64,000 nucleotides of DNA from an uncultured Gammaproteobacteria bacterium (GTDB lineage Bacteria > Pseudomonadota > Gammaproteobacteria > Xanthomonadales > Rhodanobacteraceae), in assembly GCA_963707225.1 (NCBI GenBank), contig CAVPQF010000078.1:6314-70313 (forward strand), given 5' to 3'. A program made the position numbers and the translations under genes. Positions 6,178-48,930 of the stretch are shown piece after piece (the stretch's first letter is position 1; every line of letters begins with the position of its first letter). The notes beneath the pieces are model-generated. The model was not told the origin of the DNA. It saw only the letters and a program-made list of their open reading frames with translations, and did not search any database.

Positions 6178-6624
6178 ATGAATGCACCGAGAAAAACCGT
6201 CTGCCTGTGGATCGCTCTCGCGCTGTTGTCGCTGGCGCTGTCGGCGTGCCGGCGCACACCGGACGAGGAGCAGGTGCGCGCAGCCATCGCGTCGGTCGCG
6301 CAAGCGGCCGAAGCGGGTTCGGCCGGTGATGTGGGCGCCTCGCTGAGCGAGGATTTCGACGGCAATGCAGGGCAGCTGGACCGGCGCGGGCTGACCGGCA
6401 TGATCCGGCTGCTGTCGCTGCGCGGCGAGCACGTCGGCGTGACCATGGGGCCGGTATCGATCGAGCCGCGTGGCGAACGGATGGTGGCGACCTTCACGGT
6501 CACGCTGACCAGCGGCGGCCGCCTGCTGCCCGACCAGTTGGGCCTGTACCAGGTCGAGTCCGCGTGGCGCAAGGAAGATGGCGAATGGCGTTGCTATACG
6601 GCCAGCTGGAAACATTCGCTGTAA
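6178..6624 (+). CDS. Hypothetical lipoprotein (NTF2/SnoaL-like size and pattern)
   Basis: 148 aa with a signal peptide and LSAC lipobox (LALLSLALSAC). No family motif recognised with certainty. Confidence 0.55.
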   Translation: MNAPRKTVCLWIALALLSLALSACRRTPDEEQVRAAIASVAQAAEAGSAGDVGASLSEDFDGNAGQLDRRGLTGMIRLLSLRGEHVGVTMGPVSIEPRGERMVATFTVTLTSGGRLLPDQLGLYQVESAWRKEDGEWRCYTASWKHSL

Positions 6625-36081: not shown

Positions 36082-37545
36082 TCACTCGACCCACTGGACC
36101 CGGTTTCTCCCGTTGCGCTTCGCCACATACAACGCCCCGTCCGCCGCATTCAGGAACTTGTCGCTGTCCGGGTAGCGGACTATCGCCGTCGACGCGAGCC
36201 CGGCGCTGATCGTCACCACCTGCTGGGTGCTGCGCGCATGCTGGATCTGCATGGCTTCTACCCGCCGCCGCAGCCTTTGCAGGATGTCTTCCGACGTGGC
36301 GACGTCGTAGCCGCTCATCAGGGCGACGAATTCCTCGCCGCCGTACCTGGCCACGATCACGTCGGGTTGCAGGCTCGCCTCGCGTTGCAGCGCATGCGCG
36401 ACCGCAGCCAGGCAGTCGTCGCCGGCGAGGTGGCCGTAGGTATCGTTGAACGCCTTGAAGCTGTCGATGTCGATCATGGCGACGCTGAGCGAACGGCCTG
36501 TTTTCAGGGCACCCTCCCATTCGCGCCTGAGCAGCCGGTAGAAGCCGCGGCGGTTGAGCAGAGCCGACAGGTCGTCGCGCACGATGGCCTGCTGCAGGCC
36601 GCGCTTGAGCTTCCGCAGGTCGTCCTCGAAGGCCAGGTGCTGTCCCAGCACGATGGCGTTGCGTACCGCGTAGGACATGATTGCGAGTATCAACGTGGCG
36701 GTGGCGAGGAAGGCATTTTTTCCCAGTTGCGCGAACGCGAGGCCGCACAAGGCCAGGCTCATCACGAACGGGCTGATGCTTTCGGCGAAGTGGCGGATCC
36801 TGCGGCTCGGGCGGTAGCTGCGGAGCCAGACTTTCCTCCGCCGGCCCAGCAGGAAACCCAGTACCACGAAGGGCAGACCGAGCAGCAATTCGGGCAGATA
36901 CGACTCGCTGCTGAGGATGAACCGGTTATGGATGCCGGGTAGTAGCGCATCGGTCCAGGCGAAGACGGTCAGCACGAAGAAGAACCGCCGTTCATCCGAG
37001 CGTTTCGTGGAGACCAGGCGCAGCATGGTGAACACCGCCACGAACAGCCCCATCGCGTCGAACATCCACATCACGAACGTCGCCGGTGCCGGCGAGGCCG
37101 CATTCAGCACCTCGCGCAAGGTGTAATAGAAGAGCGTCGCGATGGCGCACGCGAGCAGGCCGTCGACGATGCCGGCCCAGCGATAGAGCGTGGCGACCGG
37201 GTTGTAGGCCGCGGCAATGGTGAGCAGAAGGCTGCTCAGGCAGAAGTAGAAGGTCGGGTCGAAGGCGACCAGGGTGCCGAGCGGGTTGGACAGCGAGTCG
37301 GTGAACAGCAGGCCGAAGGCGCCGCCCTGGGCGATCAGCGCGAGCAGCAGCAAGCTCCAGAGCGGGCGATTGTGGCGGACGCTGAGGCGAAGCCGCCGCC
37401 AGCACAGCAGTACCGTCAGCGTGAGTATCGCCAGCACGACGGCGTAGCTCCATGAGAGCAGGTGCGGCGGTGCCCATGCGATCACGCCAAGTTGGGCGAG
37501 CAGTAGCGACACATAGGCTCGGGACATCCCGGCACGCATTTTCAT
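36082..37545 (-). CDS. Membrane-anchored diguanylate cyclase (GGDEF)
   Basis: About 8 predicted TM helices, then RGFYRLLRREWE...SVAMIDIDSFKAFNDTYGHLAGDDCL...RYGGEEFVALM...DGALYVAKRNGRNRV. Start set at MKMRAGMSRAYV (37545); the track ORF starts at 37641. Confidence 0.85.
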   Translation of the reverse strand: MKMRAGMSRAYVSLLLAQLGVIAWAPPHLLSWSYAVVLAILTLTVLLCWRRLRLSVRHNRPLWSLLLLALIAQGGAFGLLFTDSLSNPLGTLVAFDPTFYFCLSSLLLTIAAAYNPVATLYRWAGIVDGLLACAIATLFYYTLREVLNAASPAPATFVMWMFDAMGLFVAVFTMLRLVSTKRSDERRFFFVLTVFAWTDALLPGIHNRFILSSESYLPELLLGLPFVVLGFLLGRRRKVWLRSYRPSRRIRHFAESISPFVMSLALCGLAFAQLGKNAFLATATLILAIMSYAVRNAIVLGQHLAFEDDLRKLKRGLQQAIVRDDLSALLNRRGFYRLLRREWEGALKTGRSLSVAMIDIDSFKAFNDTYGHLAGDDCLAAVAHALQREASLQPDVIVARYGGEEFVALMSGYDVATSEDILQRLRRRVEAMQIQHARSTQQVVTISAGLASTAIVRYPDSDKFLNAADGALYVAKRNGRNRVQWVE

Positions 37546-38184: not shown

Positions 38185-38625
38185 TTACCGACAGACGAGC
38201 ACGGGAACCCTGCTTTGCAGCAGAACCTTTTGTGTTTCGCTGCCCAGCATCAGCTGGTTCAAGCCATGCCTACCATGGGTGGCCATGACGATGAGGTCGC
38301 AGTGGTGTTCGTTGACGGCCTCCAGAATGGCCTGGTGGGGGCGTTCGCCGAAGGCATAGTGGCATTCGCAGGGTACCAGTGCGGCCCTGGCCAGTTCTTT
38401 CGCCTCGTCCAGATAGCGCGTAGCGATTTGCACCGCTTGTTTGCTGTAACTCAGCTCGGCTGCGACAAGAATTTCAGCCATGTAGGTGATGGAATTGAAC
38501 GGCGGCACTACGTGCAGTGCCAGCGCCCTGGCGTCAAATGCCTTGGCCAGCTCCAGACCCATGCTGAAAGCCCGCAGCGACAGGTCCGATCCATCGATTG
38601 GCAGGAGCACGTGCTGGAACAGCAT
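38185..38625 (-). CDS. Universal stress protein (single UspA domain)
   Basis: MLFQHVLLPIDGSDLSLRAF...CDLIVMATHGRHGLNQLMLGSETQKVLLQSRVPVLVCR. Start is ambiguous (ATG at 38625 or 38676); the track ORF extends to 39033, which is not credible. Confidence 0.8.
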   Translation of the reverse strand: MLFQHVLLPIDGSDLSLRAFSMGLELAKAFDARALALHVVPPFNSITYMAEILVAAELSYSKQAVQIATRYLDEAKELARAALVPCECHYAFGERPHQAILEAVNEHHCDLIVMATHGRHGLNQLMLGSETQKVLLQSRVPVLVCR

Positions 38626-38755
38626 CTTTCGTTGCGCACAGGTGGGTTCCGGACTCACAGCAGTTTCGGCGAACATCGGCAGGGTCTCCCAAAACGTCTC
38701 GCGCCTGCACTCAGGCGTGTCAAGCGTCATGGTGACTTGCGCGGTTGCCGTGATA

Positions 38756-38769
38756 TTGATCATCGTCAA
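38756..38769. promoter_or_regulatory. FNR/FixK/Dnr-type box TTGATCATCGTCAA
   Basis: 9/10 match to TTGAT-N4-ATCAA. The centre is 86 or 137 bp upstream of the two candidate starts of the minus-strand usp gene. Confidence 0.55.
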
Positions 38770-38914
38770 CTCGTTGTGAAATAGCGTGTTGGGCCGGATG
38801 TCGTCGTGCGGCTCCATGCTGCGTCGTGGAGGGGAAGGCTTGTTCTGGCGGCAATCATCAGGCAAGGCAGAGATCGCGCTTTCAGTCCATGGTCCCGAAC
38901 TGCGTCGATGGCGG

Positions 38915-38928
38915 TTGACCTGGATCAA
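38915..38928. promoter_or_regulatory. FNR/FixK/Dnr-type box TTGACCTGGATCAA
   Basis: 9/10 match. The centre is 68 bp upstream of the ATG at 38990, so a -41.5 geometry would leave a leader of about 27 nt. Confidence 0.6.
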
Positions 38929-38989
38929 GCCGAATGACCTGCGCATGGATGAGTGTGGGCGCATCGAATCCAGCCAACGGGGCGCCGCC

Positions 38990-39793
38990 ATGTTCGAGGT
39001 TCTCGTCAACACTGAAGAAATGCGCGATGACAACCCCGTGGTACGGACTGGCCTGGCGCTGGCGAGCCGCCTCGGCGCCTACGCGACGGGGCTGAATATC
39101 GTCGAGGTATTCCCGGCGACCATGGCCATACCCGATGTCATGACCGTGCTGGCGACGCAGGAGCAGATGGCAAGGCAATGCGATGCCTGGTGGATGAAGC
39201 AATGTCACGAACACGGCATCAAAGGCGCCTGGGAAGTCATCCGCGGTCTATACGTGCCGGTACTGGCGCGACGTTCATGCATGGCGGATATCACGGTAAG
39301 CCGCATGCCGAGTCGCGAGGCCGGCTACTCCACCGGCATGGACCATGTGACACGCGTATTGCTTGCAGCAGCATCCCCCATGCTGCTGGTTCCATCGGCC
39401 CGGGATGGAACCTTCCGGCCGGAGAGGGTGCTGGTGGCGTGGAACAGCACGCAGGAATCCATGCGCGCGCTGCGCGCCGCCGTGCCCTTCTTGCGCGAGG
39501 CCGGGACGGTGTGCCTTGTGGACGGTGCCAGCGACGAACTGCCGGGCATCGCGCCGCCACCTTTGCCGGTGCGCGACTGGCTCGCGCGGCAAGGCGTCGC
39601 TCTGCAAACGGTGCAGCAGTTTCCGGCGCAAACCAACATCGGCGAAGCGCTGCTCGATCAGGCCCATGCCATGAAGGCAGATCTCCTGGTGATGGGGGCA
39701 TGGGGTCACTCGCGAGTGAGTGAACTCATGCTGGGCGGCACGACGCGCCACGTGCTCAAGCACGCCCAATTGTCGGTATTGCTGGCGCACTGA
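38990..39793 (+). CDS. Tandem-domain universal stress protein (UspE-like)
   Basis: Start is the ATG at 38990 (MFEVLVNTEE). The second domain ends ADLLVMGAWGHSRVSELMLGGTTRHVLKHAQLSVLLAH; 267 aa. Confidence 0.85.
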   Translation: MFEVLVNTEEMRDDNPVVRTGLALASRLGAYATGLNIVEVFPATMAIPDVMTVLATQEQMARQCDAWWMKQCHEHGIKGAWEVIRGLYVPVLARRSCMADITVSRMPSREAGYSTGMDHVTRVLLAAASPMLLVPSARDGTFRPERVLVAWNSTQESMRALRAAVPFLREAGTVCLVDGASDELPGIAPPPLPVRDWLARQGVALQTVQQFPAQTNIGEALLDQAHAMKADLLVMGAWGHSRVSELMLGGTTRHVLKHAQLSVLLAH

Positions 39794-39840
39794 GCCTGGC
39801 GAGAAAACGGGCGGACGGGTCGCGTCCGTCGGGGCGGACG

Positions 39841-39868
39841 CCGTTACAAACCGTTACAAACCGTTGCC
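39841..39868. repeat. Tandem decamer CCGTTACAAA x2 plus a partial third copy
   Basis: CCGTTACAAACCGTTACAAACCGTTGCC, 81 bp upstream of the Crp/Fnr-family gene. Confidence 0.7.
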
Positions 39869-39948
39869 GAGTCGAACTATTGCAGTTACCGACCGGGTCT
39901 AGAGTCGTCGCTACGGCAAACCGGAACTGCATCTCGAGGATACGTGTC

Positions 39949-40686
39949 ATGACAGCGTTGGCAACCGACATTCGTACCACCCAGACAGGCAACCACTACG
40001 CGCGCATGATCCTGGCGACCACGGGCAACGACCTGGGCATTGATATCGAAGCGATTCGCGAACATGCCCCGGTGCGACGCTGCAAGCACGCCGCCGGACA
40101 GAGCGTCTATCGTGCCGGACAGCCGTTCCATGCGATCCACCTGGTGCATGCGGGTTCCTACAAGACGTGCGAACTGGCCGACGATGGCCGCGAACAGGTC
40201 ACCGGTTTTCGCATGCGTGGCGACCTGGTCGGTATGGAGTCCATTGGCCTGAAAACCTATGCGAGCGACGTGATCGCCCTGGAGTCCAGCGAAACCCTGG
40301 AACTGCCATACCCGGCGGTACTACGCGCCTGCAGGCATGTGCCGGAACTCCAATCGCGCCTGACCGCGGCACTGGCCGCGGAAATCCGCTGCGATCGTTC
40401 GTGGATGCTGATGCTTGGCTCGCTGGCTGCGGAGCGTCGCGTGGCCGCCTTCCTGCTCGACGTTGCCGCACGCTATGCGCGTCTGGGCTACAGCGCGAAA
40501 CATTTCATATTGCGCATGAGCCGCCTCGACATGGCCAGCTTCCTTGCCCTCAAGCACGAAACCGTGAGCCGTGCGCTGTCGCATCTGCATGGCATGAGCT
40601 ACATCGACGTGCAGCGCCGCGAAGTACGCGTGCTGGATGTCAATGGACTGCGCTCGATGGCAAGGATAAACGCTGCGTTGAACTGA
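39949..40686 (+). CDS. Crp/Fnr-family transcription factor without the FNR cysteine cluster (FixK/Dnr-like)
   Basis: A cNMP-binding-like barrel (VYRAGQPFHAIHLVHAGSYKTCELADDGREQVTGFRMRGDLVGME) and a C-terminal HTH with an E--SR recognition helix (MSRLDMASFLALKHETVSRALSHL). There is no N-terminal CX2CX5C motif. Confidence 0.85.
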   Translation: MTALATDIRTTQTGNHYARMILATTGNDLGIDIEAIREHAPVRRCKHAAGQSVYRAGQPFHAIHLVHAGSYKTCELADDGREQVTGFRMRGDLVGMESIGLKTYASDVIALESSETLELPYPAVLRACRHVPELQSRLTAALAAEIRCDRSWMLMLGSLAAERRVAAFLLDVAARYARLGYSAKHFILRMSRLDMASFLALKHETVSRALSHLHGMSYIDVQRREVRVLDVNGLRSMARINAALN

Positions 40687-40692
40687 GCGGCA

Positions 40693-42726
40693 TCACTGGC
40701 CGTCGTCACGATCGAGTACCCGGCGGATGGCTGCGCCGAGTTGCCCGCGGCGATAAGGTTTGCGCAGCAATTCGAAGGCACCGAAAGCGCTGGTGTCGAT
40801 ATCCACCGATGCGTACTCGTAGCCGGAGGTGAATAGCACGGGAAGCCTGGGGTGCTGCTCGTGTGCTTTCGCGGCCAGTTCAAACCCCGTCATCTTGCCG
40901 CCAAGCACGATATCCGTAAAGAGCAGGTCGATGCCCGGGTGCTTCGACAGAAGCTCCAGCGCCGTGTCGGCATCACCTGCTTCGCAAGGTACATAGCCCA
41001 GCGTGCGCAGAAAGGCGACGCCGACACGTCTTACTTCCGGTTCGTCTTCCACGACCAGAACGGTTTCGTGGCCACGGGGCGATGGCGCTGCCGTCGCTTC
41101 CTCGGCAGTCGCTGAAGCGGCGGCCGGCAAAAAAAGCTCGACGCGCGTGCCGCAGCCCACCTGGCTCTCGATATGAAAATGGCCGCCGGACTGTTTCACG
41201 AAGCCATAAACCATGCTGAGGCCGAGACCGCTGCCTTTGCCGGCTTCCTTGGTGGTGAAAAAAGGCTCCAGCACGTGTTCAAGGATTTCCGACGGGATGC
41301 CTTCGCCGTTGTCCGATACGGAAAAGACCACATACGAGCCAGGTGCCAGCCTCGGATCTTCTTCGATGCCGGCAACGCTATAAGAGCGCGCGGCGATCGC
41401 AAGACGGCCGCCGTGCGGCATCGCGTCCCGCGCATTGAGCGCCAGGTTGATCAGGGCCGCTTCCAGTTCCCCCACGTCGGCATATACCGCGGGCACTTCG
41501 TTGTTGCACTCGGCGGTCACGGTGATGCGTTCGTCCAGAGTGCGCCTCAGCATCTCGTTCAGATCGGCCAGCAATTGCACGGTGCGCACGGCACGCGGCA
41601 ACAGATGCTGGCGGCATGAGAAAGCGAGCAGCTTGCGGGTAAGCGTCGCGCCGCGCTCAACCGCACGCGACGCGCTTGCGAGGGTTTTCCGGGTTGCCGG
41701 ATCATCCGGTACGTCGGTTTCCAGCAACTGCAGGTTGCCGGAAATCACCGTCAGCAGGTTGTTGAAATCGTGCGCAATGCCGCCGGTGAGTTGACCGAGC
41801 GCGTCCAGTCGCTGCGAATGTGCCAGTTGTTCTTCGCTGCGTCCGCGCTGGATGGACGCGGCCAGGATGTTGGCCACCGATTGCAGGAAATTCAGTCGGT
41901 CCCGGTCAAAACAGTCCTTCTGATGCGCAAGTACCAGCAATACCCCCATGGGCCCCTGCCGGTCGGGCAACGACGCGATGGCGGCGTCCTGGTAATCCCG
42001 ACTCAGGGACGGGCATATGCCGCGAAGGATATCGATGACGCTGCCTCGCATGGGTGGCTGCTCATCGACCTCCAGCATCCAGCTGCACATCACGTCCAGC
42101 AAGGCGGGGTTGCCCGACAGGCTTTCCAGTGCCGCTTGCGGCAAACCCTTCGATGCGATGGCGCGCAAGCCCGCATGGTATGGATGGTCGATGATGATCG
42201 CTGCGGCAGGAATGTCCAGGGTAGTTGCCACCAGCCCGGGAATTTCGTCGATGGCCTTTTCGTGGTACGTGGCCTCGAGCAGGCGTCGGCCCATCTGGGC
42301 CAAGGCAACGTCGAAGCGAGTGCGTTCCTGGGCCTGGCGTGCACGCTGCGTTTCGGAGATATCGCGGATCGATGCCGCGTACAGCATTTCCCGCGAAGCG
42401 GCGACCGGGCCCAGGCCGATTTCCACGGGAAACGATCGGCCATCGGCACGTATCCCGGTCAATTCGTAGCCAGCGCCCATGGCGCGCTCACGCGGACGGG
42501 CGGCGTAATGGGCACGGTGTGCGACATGCGCCTGGCGCAGGGCCAGCGGCAGCAGCGCTTCCACCTGCAAACCGACAAGCGCCCCTTCTTCATAGCCGAA
42601 CAGGCGCTCTGCATGCGCATTGGTCAGCACGATGACGCCTTGCCGATCGACCACGATCATCGCATCCGGTGCTGCATCGAACAACGAACGAAACAGGTTG
42701 GCATCGGGGGCCTGCTTGCTGAACAT
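40693..42726 (-). CDS. Hybrid sensor histidine kinase: PAS, GAF-like region, HisKA, HATPase and receiver
   Basis: Start is the ATG at 42726 ([27 protein letters not shown]); the 843-aa track ORF is a read-through into the upstream gene. H-box is [15 protein letters not shown], HATPase is DNGEGIP...[12 protein letters not shown], and the receiver is [13 protein letters not shown]...DLLFTDIVL. Confidence 0.85.
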
Positions 42727-42734
42727 GTCTCCCC

Positions 42735-43472
42735 CTATATCCGGCGAACCGTGGACGAGAACAGATAGCCGGTGCCACGAATCGATTTGATCCGTTGCGG
42801 ATGGGCGGGATCGGGCTCGATCTTGCGGCGAAGGCGCCCGATCTGCACGTCGATCGAACGATCGAACGGCCCTGCATCGTGGCCATGGATATGCGTCATC
42901 AACTGGTCGCGCGTAAGCACCTGATTGGCGTGCTCGACGAAAGCCCGGAGCAGGGCGAATTCGCCGCTGGTCAGCCGGATGGGCTCGTCTTGCGGTCCGC
43001 ACAGGGTGTACGACTGCGGATCCAGCACACAGCCATCGAACGACCAGCGCCCGGTGTCGTCGCTTGGGGCAGGGGATGCCCGGCGCAGGACACTGCGCAC
43101 GCGAGCCAGCAGTTCGCGCAGATCGAACGGCTTGGTGACATAGTCGTCCGCGCCGAGCTCCAGGCCCACCACGCGATCCACGGATTCGCCACGCCCGCTC
43201 ACGATGATCACCGGGCCATGCCAATGCTTGCGCAGATTCCGGGTCAGGCTGAAACCGTCTTCGCCGGGCAGGCCGATGTCCAGCATCACGATATCTACCG
43301 TTTCGCTGTCTATGACGTGGCGCATGTGAACGCCGTCGCCGGCAGTGCTGACGCGAAAGCCTTGGCTGCCGAAGTAGCGCCTCAGAATCTGAACGATCTC
43401 GATATCGTCATCGACCACCAGCAAGTGCGCCGGCGCTATCGTGGATGACGCAGGACTGGGCGAGACGGCCAT
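42735..43472 (-). CDS. OmpR/PhoB-family response regulator
   Basis: Start is the ATG at 43472. Receiver is HLLVVDDDIEIVQIL...DIVMLDIGLPGEDG; winged helix is LTSGEFALLRAFVEH...IKSIRGTGYLF. Its stop lies 8 bp before the kinase ATG. Confidence 0.9.
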   Translation of the reverse strand: MAVSPSPASSTIAPAHLLVVDDDIEIVQILRRYFGSQGFRVSTAGDGVHMRHVIDSETVDIVMLDIGLPGEDGFSLTRNLRKHWHGPVIIVSGRGESVDRVVGLELGADDYVTKPFDLRELLARVRSVLRRASPAPSDDTGRWSFDGCVLDPQSYTLCGPQDEPIRLTSGEFALLRAFVEHANQVLTRDQLMTHIHGHDAGPFDRSIDVQIGRLRRKIEPDPAHPQRIKSIRGTGYLFSSTVRRI

Positions 43473-43610
43473 CTGGACTCTCGATTCGCGGTGGTACCCT
43501 GTCGAGTGAGCACTCGGGCGGAGCATACGCCTGCGCCGGTCGGCTTGCAGTAGCAGCCAGCGCGGCGAGGGCGAATGCGGCGGCCCGCGATGGTGGCCGG
43601 AATCGGGCTC

Positions 43611-43624
43611 GCTGAGCCGGATCA
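43611..43624. promoter_or_regulatory. Weak half-conserved FNR-type box CTGAGCCGGATCAA
   Basis: The right half is perfect and the left half matches 3/5. The centre is 68 bp upstream of the adh ATG, the same spacing as the box in front of the tandem usp gene. Confidence 0.25.
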
Positions 43625-43684
43625 ACCCGGTCGGGTACCGGTATGCGCGATGATGATGCGCCTATCCACAGCGAGGACGGAATC

Positions 43685-44668
43685 ATGCGCGCCATGGTGC
43701 TTGGCAAGGTCGGCGAACCACTGGCACTCCGGACACTGCCCGATCCGCTGCCGGGCGACCATGAGGTTCGGCTGCGAGTGGAGGCCTGCGGCGTATGCCG
43801 CACGGACCTTCACATTGTCGACGGCGAGCTACCGAATGTCGCGACGCCGCTGATTCCGGGACACGAATGTGTCGGTCTGGTCGAGGCGCTTGGCTCCGGC
43901 GTTTCCGGACTCAAGCCGGGCCAGCGGGTAGGCGTTCCCTGGTTGGGCGGCACCTGCCACCGTTGCGAATACTGCCGTAATGGCCGCGAAAACCTGTGCG
44001 ACATGCCGGAGTTCACCGGCTATACGCGGCCGGGCGGTTACGCAAGCCATATCGTCGCACGCGCGGATTACTGCGTGCCGCTGCACCATGACGCCGATCC
44101 CGTCGCCATCGCTCCGCTGCTGTGCGCGGGCCTGATCGGCTGGCGCTGCCTGGTGAAGGCGGGGCAGGCGAAGCGCATCGGCCTCTACGGTTTCGGTGCG
44201 GCGGCACACATCATCACCCAGATCGCCTGCCGGCAGCAGCGCGGGGTCTACGCCTTTACACGGGCCGGCGATATCGCCGCCCAGACTTTTGCGCGTTCGC
44301 TCGGTGCCGTGTGGGCCGGTTCATCCGGGGAGCCGCCACCCGAGCCGCTGGATGCGGCGATCCTGTTCGCGCCGGTAGGCGACCTGGTTCCGCAGGCGTT
44401 GCGTGCCGTGAAGAAGGGCGGAAGGGTCGTGTGCGGCGGCATCCACATGTCCGATATCCCGTCATTCCCGTATCGCTGGCTGTGGGAGGAGCGCGAGGTG
44501 GTTTCCGTTGCCAATCTGACGCGCGCCGATGCGCATGATTTCTTAGCGGCCAGGGAATGCAAAGACCTAAGAACCGTCACACATGTCTATCCGCTCGAAC
44601 AGGCCAACCGGGCCCTGGATGATCTGCGCGCGGGAAGCTTCAGCGGTGCCGCGGTGCTCAAGCCGTAA
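43685..44668 (+). CDS. Zinc-dependent alcohol dehydrogenase (AdhP-like)
   Basis: Start is the ATG at 43685 behind GAGGA. Contains MRAMVLGKVGEPLALRTLPDP, ACGVCRTDLHIVDGE, GHECVGLVEALG and CHRCEYCRNGRENLC. Confidence 0.9.
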   Translation: MRAMVLGKVGEPLALRTLPDPLPGDHEVRLRVEACGVCRTDLHIVDGELPNVATPLIPGHECVGLVEALGSGVSGLKPGQRVGVPWLGGTCHRCEYCRNGRENLCDMPEFTGYTRPGGYASHIVARADYCVPLHHDADPVAIAPLLCAGLIGWRCLVKAGQAKRIGLYGFGAAAHIITQIACRQQRGVYAFTRAGDIAAQTFARSLGAVWAGSSGEPPPEPLDAAILFAPVGDLVPQALRAVKKGGRVVCGGIHMSDIPSFPYRWLWEEREVVSVANLTRADAHDFLAARECKDLRTVTHVYPLEQANRALDDLRAGSFSGAAVLKP

Positions 44669-44701
44669 TGCGATATGCCGGCATGGCTGGAGCAGGACTT
44701 G

Positions 44702-44735
44702 AACCGGAACAAGGCCGCAACCGGAACAAGGCCGC
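44702..44735. repeat. Perfect tandem duplication of a 17-mer (AACCGGAACAAGGCCGC x2)
   Basis: Read directly from the sequence. Lies between the convergent adh and polX stops, where no obvious hairpin terminator is present. Confidence 0.8.
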
Positions 44736-44751
44736 GCAACGATGCAGGCCG

Positions 44752-46488
44752 TCAACTCGCGCCGGCCATGGTCGCCTTGAGCCGCGTACGGAGTTTCTTC
44801 AAGGGCAGCGTGTTGATCACATCCTTGCATTCCAGCCATCCGCGCCGTGCCTGGCCAACGCCGAAGCGCAGGGCTGCATAGCTGTTCTCGTCGTGTGAAT
44901 CGCTGGAAATCGCCACCTGCACGCCTCCGTCCCGGGCCATGCGACAGCCGATGTCATTCAGGTCGAGGCGGTCGGGGTGCGCGTTCAATTCCAGGAAGCA
45001 CCCGCGCTCGCGGGCGTGGCCGATGAGTCGCTCCAGGTCGACCTCGTACGCCTCGCGTTCACCGATCAGGCGCCCGGTGGGATGCGCCAGGATGCTGAAG
45101 CATGGCTGGTCCATCGCGCGCATGATCCGTTCGGTCTGGCGAGTGCGCGACAGCTTGAAGTGGCTGTGGACGGCGCCGACGACCAGGTCAAGCCGGCGAA
45201 GCACGCACGCAGGGAGATCGAGCGACCCGTCTTCCAGGATCTCGATCTCGATGCCTTTCAGCACGACGATATCCCTGGATGTTTCATTGAAGCGATCGAT
45301 CAGGTCGATCTGCCGTGCCAGCCGGTCCGCGTCGAGTCCATGGGCGATGCCGAGCCCCCGGGAATGATCCGTGATGGCGACATAGGAGAGGCCGGCCTTG
45401 CGGGCTGCGTCCACCATGTCGGCAAAGCTGGCGTGTCCGTCGGAGGCATCGGTGTGTACATGCAGGTCGCCGCGCAGGTCGGTGCGCTCGATCAACGCCG
45501 GGAGCCGGTGTTGCCGGGCGGATTCGATCTCGCCGCGGTTCTCGCGCAGCTCCGGGGGAATCAGCGGCAATCCGAGCGTTGCATAGACCGACTGCTCGGT
45601 GTTCCCCGCGATGCGGCGCGCACCACGGTAAACGCCGTACTCGTTGATCTTCAGGCCATCCGCCTTGGCGATGCGCCGTAACGCCACGTTGTGCGCCTTG
45701 GAGCCGGTGAAATACACCATCGCCGCGCCGAAGGATTCCGGCTTGACCACGCGCAAATCGATCTGGAGCCCGCTTTTCAGCACGACGCTCGAGCGGGTCG
45801 GCCCTTGCGACAGCACGCGCGCCACCTCCGGGTAAGCCAGGAAACGGCGACTGACCGCCGTGCTCTGGTCGGCGGAAACCAGTACGTCCAGATCGCCAAC
45901 CGTGTCCTGCTGGCGGCGGTAGCTGCCGGCGACATCCAGCGAGGCGATGTCCTTCGATGCGTGCAGATACCGCGATATCGCTTCGGCTTGCTGGGCGGCG
46001 AACGAAAGTTTCCAACGATGCCCGCTGGCCAGGTAGGCCGACGCCGCTTGCAGCAGGCCGGTTTCCATGCGCGGCCCGAAGCCCTTCATCGCGCTCAGGC
46101 GGCCGGCGCGCGCCGCGCCCACCAGCCGGCGTGGCGTGGTGACGCCCGCCTCGTGGAACAGCCGGCTCGCCCGCTTCGGGCCGATGCCGGGGATGTGCAG
46201 CAATTCGCGCAGTCCCCGCGGGTGAGCCTGACGCAAGGCCTTGAGCTGGGCGCAGGAGCCGGTATGCACGATCTCGCCGATTTTTTCCGCGAGATCCTCG
46301 CCAATGCCGGGAAGTTCGGCATACGCGGCTTCCCCGCCGGCGGCGTCGGCCAGCGGCTTTGGCCACGAGCCGACCGTGCGTGCCGCATTCCGATAGGCCC
46401 GAATGCGGAACGGATTGGCCTGGTCGAGTTCCAGCCAGTCGGCGATTTCATCGAAGATCGCGCCGATGCTGGCGTTGGTCGCGCTCAT
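44752..46488 (-). CDS. polX: DNA polymerase/3'-5' exonuclease PolX (Pol-beta-like core plus PHP domain)
   Basis: 578 aa. N-terminus is IFDEIADWLELDQANPFRIRAYRNAARTV, with helix-hairpin-helix ELPGIGEDLAEKI and GIGPKRASRL. The nucleotidyltransferase segment is GSYRRQQDTVGDLDVLV and the PHP domain is DLHVHTDASDGHASFADM...VAITDHS. Confidence 0.9.
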   Translation of the reverse strand: MSATNASIGAIFDEIADWLELDQANPFRIRAYRNAARTVGSWPKPLADAAGGEAAYAELPGIGEDLAEKIGEIVHTGSCAQLKALRQAHPRGLRELLHIPGIGPKRASRLFHEAGVTTPRRLVGAARAGRLSAMKGFGPRMETGLLQAASAYLASGHRWKLSFAAQQAEAISRYLHASKDIASLDVAGSYRRQQDTVGDLDVLVSADQSTAVSRRFLAYPEVARVLSQGPTRSSVVLKSGLQIDLRVVKPESFGAAMVYFTGSKAHNVALRRIAKADGLKINEYGVYRGARRIAGNTEQSVYATLGLPLIPPELRENRGEIESARQHRLPALIERTDLRGDLHVHTDASDGHASFADMVDAARKAGLSYVAITDHSRGLGIAHGLDADRLARQIDLIDRFNETSRDIVVLKGIEIEILEDGSLDLPACVLRRLDLVVGAVHSHFKLSRTRQTERIMRAMDQPCFSILAHPTGRLIGEREAYEVDLERLIGHARERGCFLELNAHPDRLDLNDIGCRMARDGGVQVAISSDSHDENSYAALRFGVGQARRGWLECKDVINTLPLKKLRTRLKATMAGAS

Positions 46489-46497
46489 TCGCCAGCC

Positions 46498-46929
46498 TCA
46501 GGTCGGCAGATACGCGCGAAGTTCGTTGGGGGAGAGCGCAAGCAGGTCGCTGCCGACCTCGGCCGTGACGCACTTCAGCGTCTGATCATCGAGGCGGTCG
46601 CGCAGCACGCCGAGGAATCGCGGCGGTGCCATCAGCACGAGTTGGTCGTACTGGTTGTCCAAACGCCCCTGCCGAATGGCGTCGCGCAACAGATCGGCGA
46701 ATTGCAGCGCATGTTTTTCCCGCAGCGGGGTATGCGGTTCGATGGCATGGCGTGCCGAGTTGGCGCTTTCCTGGGTACGCCCCTGCCGGCCATGCTCGGG
46801 ATGCTGCCCCGGGGAGCGGCCATTGGGGTTGGTGTAGCACGCGATCTCCGTCAGGCTTCCGCCTTTCCTGGGCATCTCGAACAGGCGTGCCTTGGCGGCA
46901 TCGGCGACCAGTAACCAGATTTTCGACAT
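46498..46929 (-). CDS. Host_attach-family ('host attachment protein') protein
   Basis: Start is the ATG at 46929 (MSKIWLLVADAAKARLFE...). LVLMAPPRFLGVLRDRL and AEVGSDLLALSPNELRAYL match my memory of the family pattern. Its stop lies 9 bp before the polX ATG, so an operon is likely. Confidence 0.75.
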   Translation of the reverse strand: MSKIWLLVADAAKARLFEMPRKGGSLTEIACYTNPNGRSPGQHPEHGRQGRTQESANSARHAIEPHTPLREKHALQFADLLRDAIRQGRLDNQYDQLVLMAPPRFLGVLRDRLDDQTLKCVTAEVGSDLLALSPNELRAYLPT

Positions 46930-47071
46930 GTTGGCATTCTCCAGTTGACCATGACGACCGCTGTTGCCGGAAGCAGTTGGCAGCACCGGCGCCCGAAAGC
47001 CTCGTCTGTCGATCCCGTTTTTCTTCTGGGCAACGACATGCTGGAAGGCTAAGCCCCGGCCGGAAAGCACC

Positions 47072-47085
47072 TTGACGCCGGTCAA
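47072..47085. promoter_or_regulatory. FNR/FixK/Dnr-type box TTGACGCCGGTCAA
   Basis: Perfectly symmetric, 8/10 to TTGAT-N4-ATCAA. The centre is about 150 bp upstream of the Host_attach ATG on the minus strand. Confidence 0.45.
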
Positions 47086-47254
47086 CAAACGACTGCGGGT
47101 TCATCCGTTCGAAATGCCGGTCCAGTTCGGCGCGGGAAGCGCGCATGAAGTCTCCGGTCACGCCGCACTCGGACCAGCCCTGAAACGACCCCGTTTGGCC
47201 CGGCCCATCGCCGCGACCGCAGGCAGACGATGGCGCAGCTCCGTCGGCGGCGAA

Positions 47255-47268
47255 TTGATCTGAATCAA
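47255..47268. promoter_or_regulatory. Perfect FNR/FixK box TTGATCTGAATCAA
   Basis: 10/10 match; the centre is 52 bp upstream of the next box. Confidence 0.6.
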
Positions 47269-47306
47269 CCCGGCTCGCGGGCCGCTCGCCGGAATGTGTT
47301 GCAAGG

Positions 47307-47320
47307 TTGATCTGTATCAA
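47307..47320. promoter_or_regulatory. Perfect FNR/FixK box TTGATCTGTATCAA
   Basis: 10/10 match; the centre is about 125 bp upstream of the BON gene ATG (47439). Confidence 0.6.
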
Positions 47321-47438
47321 CACGCGGAGACGGCTCGTTTCTACAGTGGCCAGGCATCGATGGCGACTTTCCGCTTCGCATCGACGTGTCATGCGTGCTT
47401 TCGCGCAACGTGTGTGGAAAATATCCGAGGAAAAGCCC

Positions 47439-48089
47439 ATGAAAACTGATCGTCAACTTCAAGAAGACATCCTGAACGAGCTCGATTGGGAGCCGTCGGT
47501 GGACGCCAGCCGCATCGGCGTCGAGGTATCGCAAGGGGTGGCCACCTTGTCCGGCCACGTCGAGAGCTACACGCAGAAGTGGGCGGCCGAACGCGCAGCG
47601 CAGCGCGTCGCAGGCATCAAGAGCGTTGCGATGGACATTGACGTGGTTTTGCCCGGGCCGCATCAACGCGATGACACGGAGATCGCCAAGGCGGCCACGG
47701 ATGCCATCGGCTGGAACGTTTCGATTCCGAAGGATACGGTCAAGCTCGTGGTCGAAGATGGTTGGGTCACGCTTTCCGGCGACGTCGAGTGGGCGTTCAT
47801 CCGAAACGCTGCGGAAGCCAGTGTCCGCCACCTGTACGGTGTCAAGGGCGTGGTCAACAAGATCAGCATTCGCCCGCATATCGAGCCGCGCGGCGTCAAG
47901 ACCAAGATCGAGGCGGCGCTCTATCGTCGCGCGCACCTCGATGCCGCCGCCATCACGGTTGGCGTGGATAAGGGTACGGTGACCCTGACGGGCGAGGTCG
48001 ATTCGCTGGCCGAGCGCAACACGGTTGAATGGGCGGCATGGAGCGCGCCCGGCGTACAGAAGGTTGTCGACAACCTCGTTGTCGCCTGA
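47439..48089 (+). CDS. BON-domain protein (OsmY-like, multiple BON repeats)
   Basis: Start is the ATG at 47439 behind GAGGA. Repeated BON pattern: RIGVEVSQGVATLSGHVESY...VAGIKSV, VKLVVEDGWVTLSGDVEW...VKGVVNKI, and ITVGVDKGTVTLTGEVDS...GVQKVVDNL. Confidence 0.85.
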   Translation: MKTDRQLQEDILNELDWEPSVDASRIGVEVSQGVATLSGHVESYTQKWAAERAAQRVAGIKSVAMDIDVVLPGPHQRDDTEIAKAATDAIGWNVSIPKDTVKLVVEDGWVTLSGDVEWAFIRNAAEASVRHLYGVKGVVNKISIRPHIEPRGVKTKIEAALYRRAHLDAAAITVGVDKGTVTLTGEVDSLAERNTVEWAAWSAPGVQKVVDNLVVA

Positions 48090-48140: not shown

Positions 48141-48930
48141 GTGCGCCCGGCAGGGCGCACCTGCTTGGAGGTGAAAGTCCTCTATCCACCCGGCAAGGGG
48201 AAGGATTAGCCAGAGGCAGGGGCGATCGGGTGACTGGTCGTCTGAAGGAAGCCCGAGGCAAAACGCTGGCCTGATGACAAGACCGCCGGGAGCGGTCTTG
48301 AACAGCCGCAGGCTGGCCCCGAAGGGGTGAGCCGCAGGGATGCGGCGAATAACAAGAAGCGGATACGAGGCGACGTGTCGGGGTGAGGCAGCCATGAAGG
48401 CCAAAGCCCAGTACTTGCACGGAACGACACGGCGTATATCCGACAGGCATCCCGCAAGGGGACTTCCTTCGGTCGTAAGCGGGAAGGCAGGTGCGTCATA
48501 CCCGGGGAGATCTCGCCTCGTGCCTGACCAGCCCGAAGGGCGCAGGACAGCCGTAGGCTGGTCCTGAGCGTAGCGAAGGATGCGCGCAGCGCACAAAGGG
48601 CGACGCCGCAGGGCGGAGCGAGAAGTCAGCAGAGGCCATAGTAGGTGCGGTATGACCGAAGGGCCGAACCTGTCACGAGTGGCAAGTCACGCGTGCTCTC
48701 TGCGCGTCTTGGGCAGAAGTTCCGGTGCAAGCCGGGAGCCTTGGTCAGAGCTGGACGGGCCGGAAGTCCGGAAGGTGATTGGGGTGTCCATAGGACGACA
48801 GGCGACACGACGAACGAAACAAGCTCAAGGCCTCGAAGTTCGCATGAACTACATGGCAGACGGGAACCGCCGTATGCGGAACCGCACGTACGGTGGTGTG
48901 GGAGGGGGCCGGAGTATTCCGGCTACCTAC
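48141..48930 (+). mobile_element. Group II intron RNA, apparently ORF-less (no reverse transcriptase/maturase)
   Basis: The 5' end GTGCGCCCGGCAGGGCGCAC fits the GUGYG consensus. Domain V, ACCGCCGTATGCGGAACCGCACGTACGGTGGT (48866-48897), has a 10-bp lower helix, an AC bulge and a CGC triad. A domain VI hairpin GCCGGA-gtat-TCCGGC carries a bulged A at 48925, and the 3' end reads ...CCTAC. No ORF in any frame across the 790 nt resembles an RT. Boundaries are good to a few nt. Confidence 0.8.

Follow-up and report, generated by a model that had tools for sequence, protein, structure and literature searches.

Analysis of a 64-kb stretch of DNA (the window, positions 6314–70313 of contig C78, in a genome of 3.54 Mb, 67% GC and 160 contigs) revealed a block of genes between 38185 bp and 48140 bp in which universal stress protein (USP), alcohol dehydrogenase (ADH), BON and PolX genes lie beside a two-component system and a gene of the Crp/Fnr family. 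We consider it rather probable that this block is part of an accessory low-oxygen/stasis island which is switched on by a cascade homologous to hFixL-FxkR-FixK; the binding, phosphorylation and induction steps of this cascade are all drawn from sequence, homology, site statistics and conservation. The closest orthologues of the Crp protein were those of Rhodanobacter (84–86% identity), with remoter ones in Dyella, Luteibacter, Dokdonella and Rudaea and, judged by these nearest relatives, the source organism is a Rhodanobacter.

The genes between approximately 38185 bp and 48140 bp scored clearly below their neighbours in GC content at the third codon position (GC3) and in codon usage. In public DNA sequencing runs, the block was present at approximately 95% identity in other organisms, in which its left flank was different, with 38181 bp as the point of divergence. 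Because of this atypical composition and the differing left flank, the block behaves as accessory DNA. A tRNA scan found none at the island borders. Genes were called with a caller trained on open reading frames (ORFs) with high GC3 and low GC content at the second codon position; a codon-usage caller trained on all long ORFs chose antisense shadow ORFs and was dropped. Protein domains, assigned by Pfam, bore out the gene names given in an earlier note on this DNA, which were Usp, tandem Usp, Crp/Fnr, hybrid kinase, OmpR-type regulator, Zn-ADH, PolX, Host_attach/baeRF12 and BON protein. The GGDEF cyclase gene (36082–37527), which the same note had included in the cargo, was ruled out as it lies outside the compositionally atypical block, has the codon usage and composition typical of the host and is not accompanied by a box.

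Regulators and the predicted K-box

The regulatory genes of the block and the elements assigned to the promoter of the Crp/Fnr-family gene (crp) were:

39949–40686, + strand: FixK-like Crp/Fnr-family regulator (Pfam cNMP_binding, HTH_Crp_2)
40693–42726, − strand: hFixL-like hybrid histidine kinase with PAS (residues 12–130), HisKA, HATPase and a C-terminal receiver
42735–43472, − strand: FxkR-like OmpR-family response regulator (Pfam Response_reg, Trans_reg_C), first gene of the response regulator-histidine kinase (RR-HK) operon
39843–39868, + strand: K-box GTTACAAACC GTTACAAACC GTTGCC, to which the FxkR-like regulator is predicted to bind upstream of crp
39885–39889: extra repeat GTTAC in the crp promoter
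39900–39905, + strand: TAGAGT, inferred to be the conserved −10-like hexamer of the crp promoter

That the block encodes its own regulators, as the earlier note had proposed, was upheld by the presence of a hFixL-like kinase, a FxkR-like regulator and a FixK-like Crp protein together with an exact K-box. The response regulator shared 49% identity over 234 amino acids with FxkR9 (pRL90026) of Rhizobium 3841 (E 5e-73), including a near-identical recognition helix, and its best matches among 72,556 plasmids were the FxkR homologues of Ensifer/Sinorhizobium. An alignment of the kinase with hFixL9 of pRL9 showed 46% identity across the kinase and receiver domains and 35% across the PAS domain. The PAS domain matched the FixL heme-PAS structures of B. 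japonicum and S. meliloti at approximately 1e-19, although its best PDB match was not FixL but 10jx, the PAS domain of an uncharacterised multi-sensor kinase. His67, which corresponds to the proximal His200 of BjFixL, was kept in 76/77 kinase orthologues. A stretch of approximately 160 residues between PAS and HisKA had no assigned domain.

The Crp factor had no N-terminal Cys cluster, so that the Fe-S cysteines of FNR and Anr proper are absent from it, and its recognition helix, described earlier as of the E--SR type, reads ETVSR. Its PDB matches were A. fischeri FNR (1.4e-29), FixK2 (1.7e-18) and Dnr (1e-6), and it shared 30% identity with FixK9b and 28–30% with the rhizobial FixK proteins.

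The K-box core, GTTACAAACCGTTACA at 39843–39858, is an exact GTTACA-N4-GTTACA, is the only copy in the genome and is accompanied by a third repeat. GTTACA-N4-GTTACA is given as the FxkR-binding K-box in the passages of PMC7888657 and PMC4999443 that cite Zamorano-Sanchez 2012. The K-box of fixK9a on pRL9, GTTACAAACTGTTACA, matched that of the window at 15/16 positions, the one difference being a spacer base, and it lies 101 nt before fixK9a, compared to 106 nt before the crp ATG in the window. Among 77 Rhodanobacteraceae loci, GTTRC-N5-GTTRC was found upstream of crp in 76, at a constant distance; 38 of these had the exact GTTACA-N4-GTTACA and 61 had the third repeat. A recent tandem duplication at 39843–39868 was ruled out by this retention across genera. 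CTAGAGT-type heptamers were present in 26/77 loci and, in 21 Rhodanobacter/Dyella loci, were positioned approximately 47–52 nt before the crp ATG; TAGAGT, 56 nt downstream of the K-box, is a plausible −10 element. Many relatives also had an anaerobox (an FNR/FixK-type box) upstream of the K-box before crp. In one relative with approximately 95% identity (run X9), approximately 142 extra nt were located just upstream of the K-box (window 39822/39823), which are probably the anaerobox-bearing stretch of other Rhodanobacter. A K-box cascade of this type is apparently newly reported for the Rhodanobacteraceae.

In the proposed cascade, a drop in O2 would lead the cytoplasmic hybrid kinase (40693–42726) to phosphorylate the OmpR-type regulator (42735–43472). 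As the K-box is exact, conserved and unique in the genome, this regulator is predicted to bind it at 39843–39868 and to activate the adjacent Cys-less FixK-like gene (39949–40686). The FixK-like factor would then bind TTGAY-N4-RTCAA boxes as a class II activator, a role suggested by box conservation and geometry, and would probably share these boxes with the Fe-S FNR paralogues of the genome. The predicted targets are usp1, usp2, adh, Host_attach-polX and BON, and possibly the RR-HK operon via a shared box.

Anaeroboxes in the window, the genome and related loci

Scans used a strict consensus, TTGAT-N4-ATCAA, and a relaxed one, TTGAY-N4-RTCAA. The sites found in the block, including a degenerate sixth, were:

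38756–38769: anaerobox TTGATCATCGTCAA, nearer to usp1 in the region between the divergent usp genes
38915–38928: anaerobox TTGACCTGGATCAA, centre 68.5 nt before the usp2 ATG
43612–43625: degenerate anaerobox CTGAGCCGGATCAA, two mismatches, common to the divergent adh and RR-HK promoters
47072–47085: anaerobox TTGACGCCGGTCAA, centre approximately 150 nt before the Host_attach ATG
47255–47268: perfect anaerobox TTGATCTGAATCAA, the distal one of a pair spaced 52 bp apart
47307–47320: proximal perfect anaerobox TTGATCTGTATCAA, in the BON promoter

The earlier note had reported five matches confined to two intergenic regions. All five proved to lie in those two regions and to be exact to the relaxed consensus, and they were the sole such matches in the 64 kb, where 0.10 would be expected. 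Against the strict consensus, the boxes at 47255 and 47307 were perfect, those at 38756 and 38915 had one mismatch each and that at 47072 had two. The window contained 5 sites with ≤1 mismatch to the strict consensus compared to 0.38 expected, and none of 100 shuffles reached 5. The sixth, half-degenerate site that had been noted before adh was found at 43612–43625, its centre 66.5 nt before the likely ATG at 43685, and is orthologous to TTGAGCCATATCAA before adh in three relatives (L005, L012 and L014).

Genome-wide, 87 sites with ≤1 mismatch to the strict consensus were identified in 3.54 Mb (0.025 per kb), of which 8 were perfect and 7 of these intergenic. The block contained 4 such sites in 9.9 kb (Poisson P ~1e-4), an enrichment for which the note had proposed this kind of scan. 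The relaxed consensus was found at 33 positions, 29 of them promoter-side, while only approximately 15% of the genome is non-coding; the boxes are thus not equally dense everywhere including coding DNA, the outcome that had been set beforehand as counting against the proposal. The block, 0.28% of the genome, accounted for 5/33 of these sites and tied for the densest 10-kb stretch.

The predicted target genes, other than the Host_attach-polX operon, were:

38185–38625, − strand: usp1, single-domain universal stress protein (Pfam Usp 4.8e-29)
38990–39793, + strand: usp2, tandem-type universal stress protein (Pfam Usp 6.1e-14)
43685–44668, + strand: adh, Zn-dependent alcohol dehydrogenase (Pfam ADH_N 1.5e-31)
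47439–48089, + strand: BON protein with three BON domains, OsmY-like (Pfam BON 6.5e-48, 3 stretches)

The usp1 ORF is open up to 38730/38817; as the Usp domain begins at MLFQHVLLPIDGSD, i.e. M(38625)LFQHVLLPIDGSD, its start is probably the ATG at 38625 and not that at 38730, which places the box approximately 137 nt upstream. The position of the 38915 box relative to the usp2 ATG at 38990 fitted the leader of approximately 27 nt that the note had derived. The start of adh is probably the ATG at 43685, and the encoded protein is 35% identical to AdhP, whose gene adjoins fxkR9 on pRL9. In the BON promoter, 21 nt separate the proximal box from TACAGT (47342–47347), a class II geometry which would put the proximal box near −41.5, the distal box near −93.5 and the leader at approximately 85 nt; the same box pair with the same 52-bp spacing was present in Rhodanobacter sp. 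KK11 (L006). In the Host_attach promoter, TAGCCT comes 20 nt after the box and the leader is approximately 110 nt long. A consensus promoter and terminator scan of the window was uninformative in this high-GC DNA.

For comparison, 80 loci around Crp orthologues were gathered, 1.41 Mb in total. Their box density was 0.22 per kb, approximately 9 times that of this genome, and included 77 perfect boxes. The trio of crp (+), kinase (−) and regulator (−) was invariant in these loci and its neighbours varied: usp was common, adh and BON were frequent, Host_attach was occasional and polX was adjacent in KK11 only. The boxes upstream of orthologous genes were distributed as follows:

usp2: 18/18 with ≤1 mismatch, 18/18 with ≤2, at 60–70 nt before the start
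BON: 14/21 with ≤1 mismatch, 19/21 with ≤2, mostly at 50–70 nt
Host_attach: 5/7 with ≤1 mismatch, 7/7 with ≤2, position variable
usp1: 27/62 with ≤1 mismatch, 38/62 with ≤2
crp: 30/76 with ≤1 mismatch, 53/76 with ≤2, at approximately 100–150 nt
response regulator: 25/74 with ≤1 mismatch, 47/74 with ≤2, position variable
adh: 11/17 with ≤2 mismatches
kinase (operon-internal control): 0/74 with ≤1 mismatch, 3/74 with ≤2

Taken with the site statistics, these counts support the reading of the five boxes as real operator-type sites before the two usp genes, adh, Host_attach-polX and BON.

Contrary to what the note had supposed, the regulon was not self-contained, since 28 more boxes of the same type and other E--SR regulators are present elsewhere in the genome. 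These boxes precede classic targets of FNR, Anr and Dnr: hemN (followed by fnr), two cbb3-type ccoN genes, a qNor-type norB adjoining a Dnr-like gene and, among others, Hsp20, OmpA-like and nucleoside-phosphorylase-like genes. Five Crp/Fnr-family proteins were found in the genome, two with the FNR cysteine cluster and one Dnr-like (an incomplete call). The ETVSR helix of the local factor was common to both Cys-cluster FNRs and the Dnr-like paralogue, in a comparison that covered these four, the fifth match being on C97. The two FNRs, encoded at C146:3586 and C135:30494, have C-X2-C-X5-C plus a central Cys, the ligands of the [4Fe-4S] cluster, and both of their genes adjoin hemN. The FNR proteins of these two hemN-fnr pairs (C146:2185–4395 and C135:28664–31255) are approximately 80% identical by eye, and one of the pairs sits on a 5.8-kb contig; the pairs may be true paralogues or may reflect a contaminated bin (contamination estimate 3.9%).

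A further cluster of this island type was located at 77.5–85.7 kb of contig C106 (77489–85682, L158); it contains three boxes, and its codon usage is atypical in the same way. It encoded OmpA-like, Hsp20 and erythromycin-esterase family proteins, a phosphoribosyltransferase-alpha/beta-hydrolase fusion, a 197-aa protein and thymidine/pyrimidine-nucleoside-phosphorylase (PyNP)-like, Prs/PRPP-synthetase-like and CarS-like proteins. In Rhodanobacter sp. KK11 and R. terrae this cluster comes directly after BON. The island is one cluster, split in the assembly, of a genome-wide anaerobox regulon that is shared with the Fe-S FNRs.

Behind the BON terminator, an ORF-less group IIC intron occupies 48141–48930 of the window. 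At least 9 other copies with ≥99% identity were found in the genome, on contigs C24, C50, C140, C91, C49, C135, C61 and C28, and the second hypoxia cluster is immediately preceded by a 92% copy at C106:76614–77435. In the source metagenome, the intron was covered approximately 20 times as deeply as its flanks. As relatives have the OmpA-like gene of the C106 cluster directly after BON, the BON/intron/smpB junction may have arisen when two copies of the intron recombined, or may have been joined in assembly.

Two further groups of boxes were observed outside the block. A low-GC island at C115:22000–38000 (51–59% GC), in which few genes were called, contained four boxes with ≤1 mismatch, two of them perfect with AT-rich spacers; these may be chance matches in AT-richer DNA. 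Two anaeroboxes at C114:34014 and 34230, one of them perfect, lie upstream of a 122-aa ORF (C114:34333–34701) without a Pfam match.

Beyond the family, the same triad with USP/BON/ADH cargo was found twice. On an Ensifer adhaerens plasmid, where a K-box was present, fixK and hfixL form an operon from which the gene of the matching regulator diverges, and USP and BON genes are close by. On a 2.5-Mb replicon of Variovorax paradoxus (Burkholderiales), an RR-HK operon and a convergent Crp gene were accompanied by five anaeroboxes and by USP, BON, phbB, Zn-ADH and MBL-fold genes. On pRL9 of Rhizobium 3841, adh adjoins fxkR (L157, 13192–15264). With adh by fxkR on pRL9, and BON and USP genes by the trio on the Ensifer plasmid and the Variovorax replicon, cargo and regulators therefore appear to travel together between classes of proteobacteria. 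When 401 Pseudomonadota genomes were searched with the regulator, OmpR paralogues scored 1e-50 to 1e-70, so that the result was not specific enough to gauge breadth; outside the family, the regulator adjoined a hFixL-like kinase in only two genomes.

PolX and the Host_attach protein

The least expected element of the island, and one so far undescribed, is the recurring cargo of PolX and a baeRF12 protein, encoded by a two-gene operon:

46498–46929, − strand: Host_attach/baeRF family 12 protein, core aeRF1-like domain only (PF10116 1.7e-33, PF18856 1e-27)
44752–46488, − strand: PolX, pol beta-like core plus PHP (Pfam HHH_8, palm, thumb, PHP), second gene of the Host_attach-polX operon

PolX gave a full-length match to T. 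thermophilus PolX 3AU2 (2.4e-141) and has the GDLD and DLRVV motifs and the catalytic aspartates. The Host_attach protein has 143 aa; its gene lies 9 nt upstream of polX and its start and ribosome-binding site were located. A sequence search for a relative of Host_attach with a solved structure found none. Family 12 is one of several core-domain-only aeRF1-like families, which have been predicted to act as non-catalytic translation silencers under stress (PMC6514570). The protein described here resembles the baeRF-1 clade, which Burroughs and Aravind 2019 (PMC6514570) linked to ribosome hibernation, in being a core-only member of family 12; it differs in that the clade was associated with HPF, whereas this gene is translationally adjacent to polX behind an anaerobox.

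Analysis of 61 sampled genomes of the family revealed a patchy distribution of PolX, which was present in 11/61, while the kinase was present in 18/61. The kinase was found in 8/11 PolX-positive compared to 10/50 PolX-negative genomes (Fisher P 0.0014, a test which takes genomes as independent despite their shared phylogeny). Among the ten other PolX loci, eight had polX in a cluster that bears boxes and includes usp, adh, Host_attach, Hsp20 or BON, two of these eight being right beside the trio, so that the link between PolX, boxes and usp/adh-type genes which had been drawn from the window alone recurs in related genomes. A box was positioned for the polX operon in 6/10, for example as box-usp-adh-polX, as box-Host_attach-polX or as boxes directly upstream of polX, and in one locus (L121) the layout of boxes before Host_attach was that of the window. 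Of the PolX genomes without the kinase, two of genus g4 had no box before polX and a third had boxes nearby, none of which was positioned for polX. A literature search found no paper linking PolX to FNR, Anr or hypoxia regulons.

At 44702 bp, in the spacer between the convergent adh and polX genes, 17 nt are absent in related organisms; these nucleotides, between the two stop codons, are therefore a duplication or insertion specific to the strain. The relative in run X9 had approximately 1 kb extra between Host_attach and BON (window 47165–47201).

The cargo as a whole points to survival without growth. The USPs would bind nucleotides, ADH would recycle NAD(H), the BON protein would act in the envelope or periplasm and PolX would carry out gap-filling DNA repair, while the release-factor-like Host_attach protein may silence ribosomes.

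Competing explanations, related systems and wider meaning

Three other explanations of the block were weighed. That the boxes were brought together by chance or by base composition in an atypical block of lower GC, and have no regulatory role, has in our estimation next to no probability. The lower GC3 and atypical codon usage of the block would fit it, as would the low-GC island on C115, which also has 4 sites with ≤1 mismatch in 10 kb; yet mononucleotide composition would predict 0.05 sites in the block, all five boxes are intergenic, and in different genera they keep their places relative to orthologous genes, the kinase (0/74) serving as a clean negative control. It is also quite unlikely, though far less remote, that the global Fe-S FNR/Anr paralogues mainly operate the boxes, in which case the block would simply be a region of the general anaerobic regulon where boxes are dense, and the local Crp-HK-RR triad would do something else or only fine-tune. 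The two Cys-cluster FNRs with the same ETVSR helix, each adjoining hemN, and the identical boxes before ccoN, hemN and norB speak for this explanation, and so do the binding of the same anaeroboxes by Rhizobium FnrN and FixK (PMC7888657) and the control of P. aeruginosa usp genes by Anr (PMC3721108). However, the approximately 9-fold box density was specific to the surroundings of the triad at 80 loci in many genera, the triad's own genes bear boxes in relatives, and the kinase-less PolX genomes (two of genus g4 and a third) have no box positioned for polX. A K-box cascade making a sensor-less E--SR factor would, moreover, have no other obvious purpose.

The remaining alternative keeps the same wiring but has the PAS domain of the kinase sense another ligand, such as NO, CO or redox state, so that the island answers a different stasis signal. 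We regard this as unlikely. The replaced distal Arg of FixL (R220 of BjFixL), the best PDB match to 10jx and the extra ~160 residues between PAS and HisKA are in keeping with it, but the proximal His is kept together with the FixL-like motif around it, the output boxes are shared with the O2-responsive genes ccoN and hemN, the homologous rhizobial system responds to O2 (PMC7888657) and the lxa locus, which resembles the block in gene content, is induced when O2 is low (PMC3721108).

Several observations also weigh directly against a low-oxygen island driven by the local cascade, the explanation that we prefer. The residue equivalent to R220 was Tyr, Phe or Gln and never Arg in 77/77 kinase orthologues, whereas rhizobial hFixL retains the distal Arg, and because of this replacement heme binding and O2 specificity of the kinase are only putative. 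The Crp factor, at 28–30% identity to rhizobial FixK, is nearer to true FNR, which makes its orthology uncertain, and its boxes could also be served by the three other E--SR paralogues that the genome encodes. The crp promoter of the window does not have the anaerobox seen in many relatives, nor do those of L005, L010 and L022, in which usp2 abuts crp. The −10 candidates after the usp1, usp2 and adh boxes are weak, and no recognisable K-box was found in Variovorax and two other trios outside the family. A search for expression data found no transcriptome of an isolate. Soil metatranscriptome contigs were 93–97% identical to parts of all block genes, and some of them span divergent genes and so give no transcription starts; from these contigs, which have no oxygen condition attached and may contain DNA, the most that can be said is that the genes are transcribed by relatives in soil.

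FNR/FixK boxes before usp-type stress genes are a common and already known theme, found in the Anr, FNR and Dnr regulons (P. aeruginosa Anr, rhizobial FnrN). The block shares with these the operator consensus, a putative class II geometry and, in the genome as a whole, the usp, ccoN, hemN and nor targets. It differs from them in that the local factor lacks the Fe-S cysteines, would not sense O2 directly and has its own gene under a two-component system. A literature search found nothing on Rhodanobacter with FNR and USP.

The resemblance was closest in wiring to the hFixL-FxkR-FixKf cascade of Rhizobium etli and R. leguminosarum 3841. Common to both are a hybrid FixL-type PAS kinase with a C-terminal receiver, a FxkR-type OmpR-family regulator, a K-box approximately 100 nt before a Cys-less Crp/Fnr gene, TTGAT-N4-ATCAA anaeroboxes on the targets, coexisting Fe-S FNR paralogues with the same boxes and an adh gene that adjoins fxkR or its counterpart. 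The host here, however, is a non-symbiotic gammaproteobacterium, in which crp is convergent with the RR-HK operon, whereas in Rhizobium a fixK-hfixL operon is divergent from fxkR. The FixK-like protein is only approximately 30% identical to FixK9b and nearer to FNR, the distal Arg of FixL is replaced, and the local targets are stasis genes rather than fixNOQP/fixGHIS, the ccoN boxes being elsewhere in the genome.

The earlier comparison with the lxa locus of B. cenocepacia J2315 (Sass et al. 2013, PMC3721108) holds for gene content, which includes adh, Crp, response regulator, kinase, USP, BON-type, Zn-ADH and Hsp20 genes. The lxa locus comprises 50 genes induced by low O2, among them ribonucleotide reductase (RNR), polyhydroxybutyrate (PHB) and acetate kinase genes; BCAM0286 is an adh gene, BCAM0287 encodes a CRP related to Anr, BCAM0288 and BCAM0289 encode a response regulator and a sensor kinase and BCAM0290-0292 encode three USPs, and most intergenic regions contain an FNR-like inverted repeat (PMC3721108). 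Compared by description only, the two share a cluster of USP, BON-type "phospholipid-binding", Zn-ADH and Hsp20 genes (the last on C106 here), genes for a response regulator and sensor kinase next to one for an Anr-related Crp, FNR-like motifs and an accessory, patchy distribution. The RNR, PHB and acetate kinase genes were not seen here, and PolX and Host_attach are not listed in lxa (PMC3721108). Control of lxa was credited to FixLJ-FixK in a 2025 review (PMC12071387), in contrast to the FxkR-type regulator of the block. The island thus combines lxa-like gene content with predicted hFixL-FxkR-FixK wiring of the rhizobial kind.

The origin of the hFixL-FxkR-FixK cascade has been placed in the Rhizobiaceae (PMC4999443). 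An exact K-box with FxkR and hFixL homologues in a gammaproteobacterium shows that the cascade is not confined to rhizobia, and links it to the lxa-type islands of Burkholderia. More tentatively, hFixL-FxkR-FixK, which has been treated as a rhizobial invention serving symbiosis, may be a portable master switch that moves among Alpha-, Beta- and Gammaproteobacteria along with an lxa-type island, the islands of Rhodanobacteraceae having repeatedly recruited PolX and an aeRF1-like protein; we put this forward as a possibility that is short of probable. If it were true, DNA gap repair and ribosome silencing would be oxygen-regulated dormancy functions, and the lxa trio BCAM0287-0289 would be a FxkR-type cascade, with lxa not driven by FixLJ alone. 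The recurrence of PolX and a release-factor-like protein behind anaeroboxes likewise leads to the hypothesis that gap repair and translation silencing belong to a hypoxic stasis programme. Rhodanobacter dominates acidic, nitrate- and metal-contaminated subsurface sites with fluctuating oxygen, and a dedicated, transferable module for low-oxygen survival would help to explain its persistence there.

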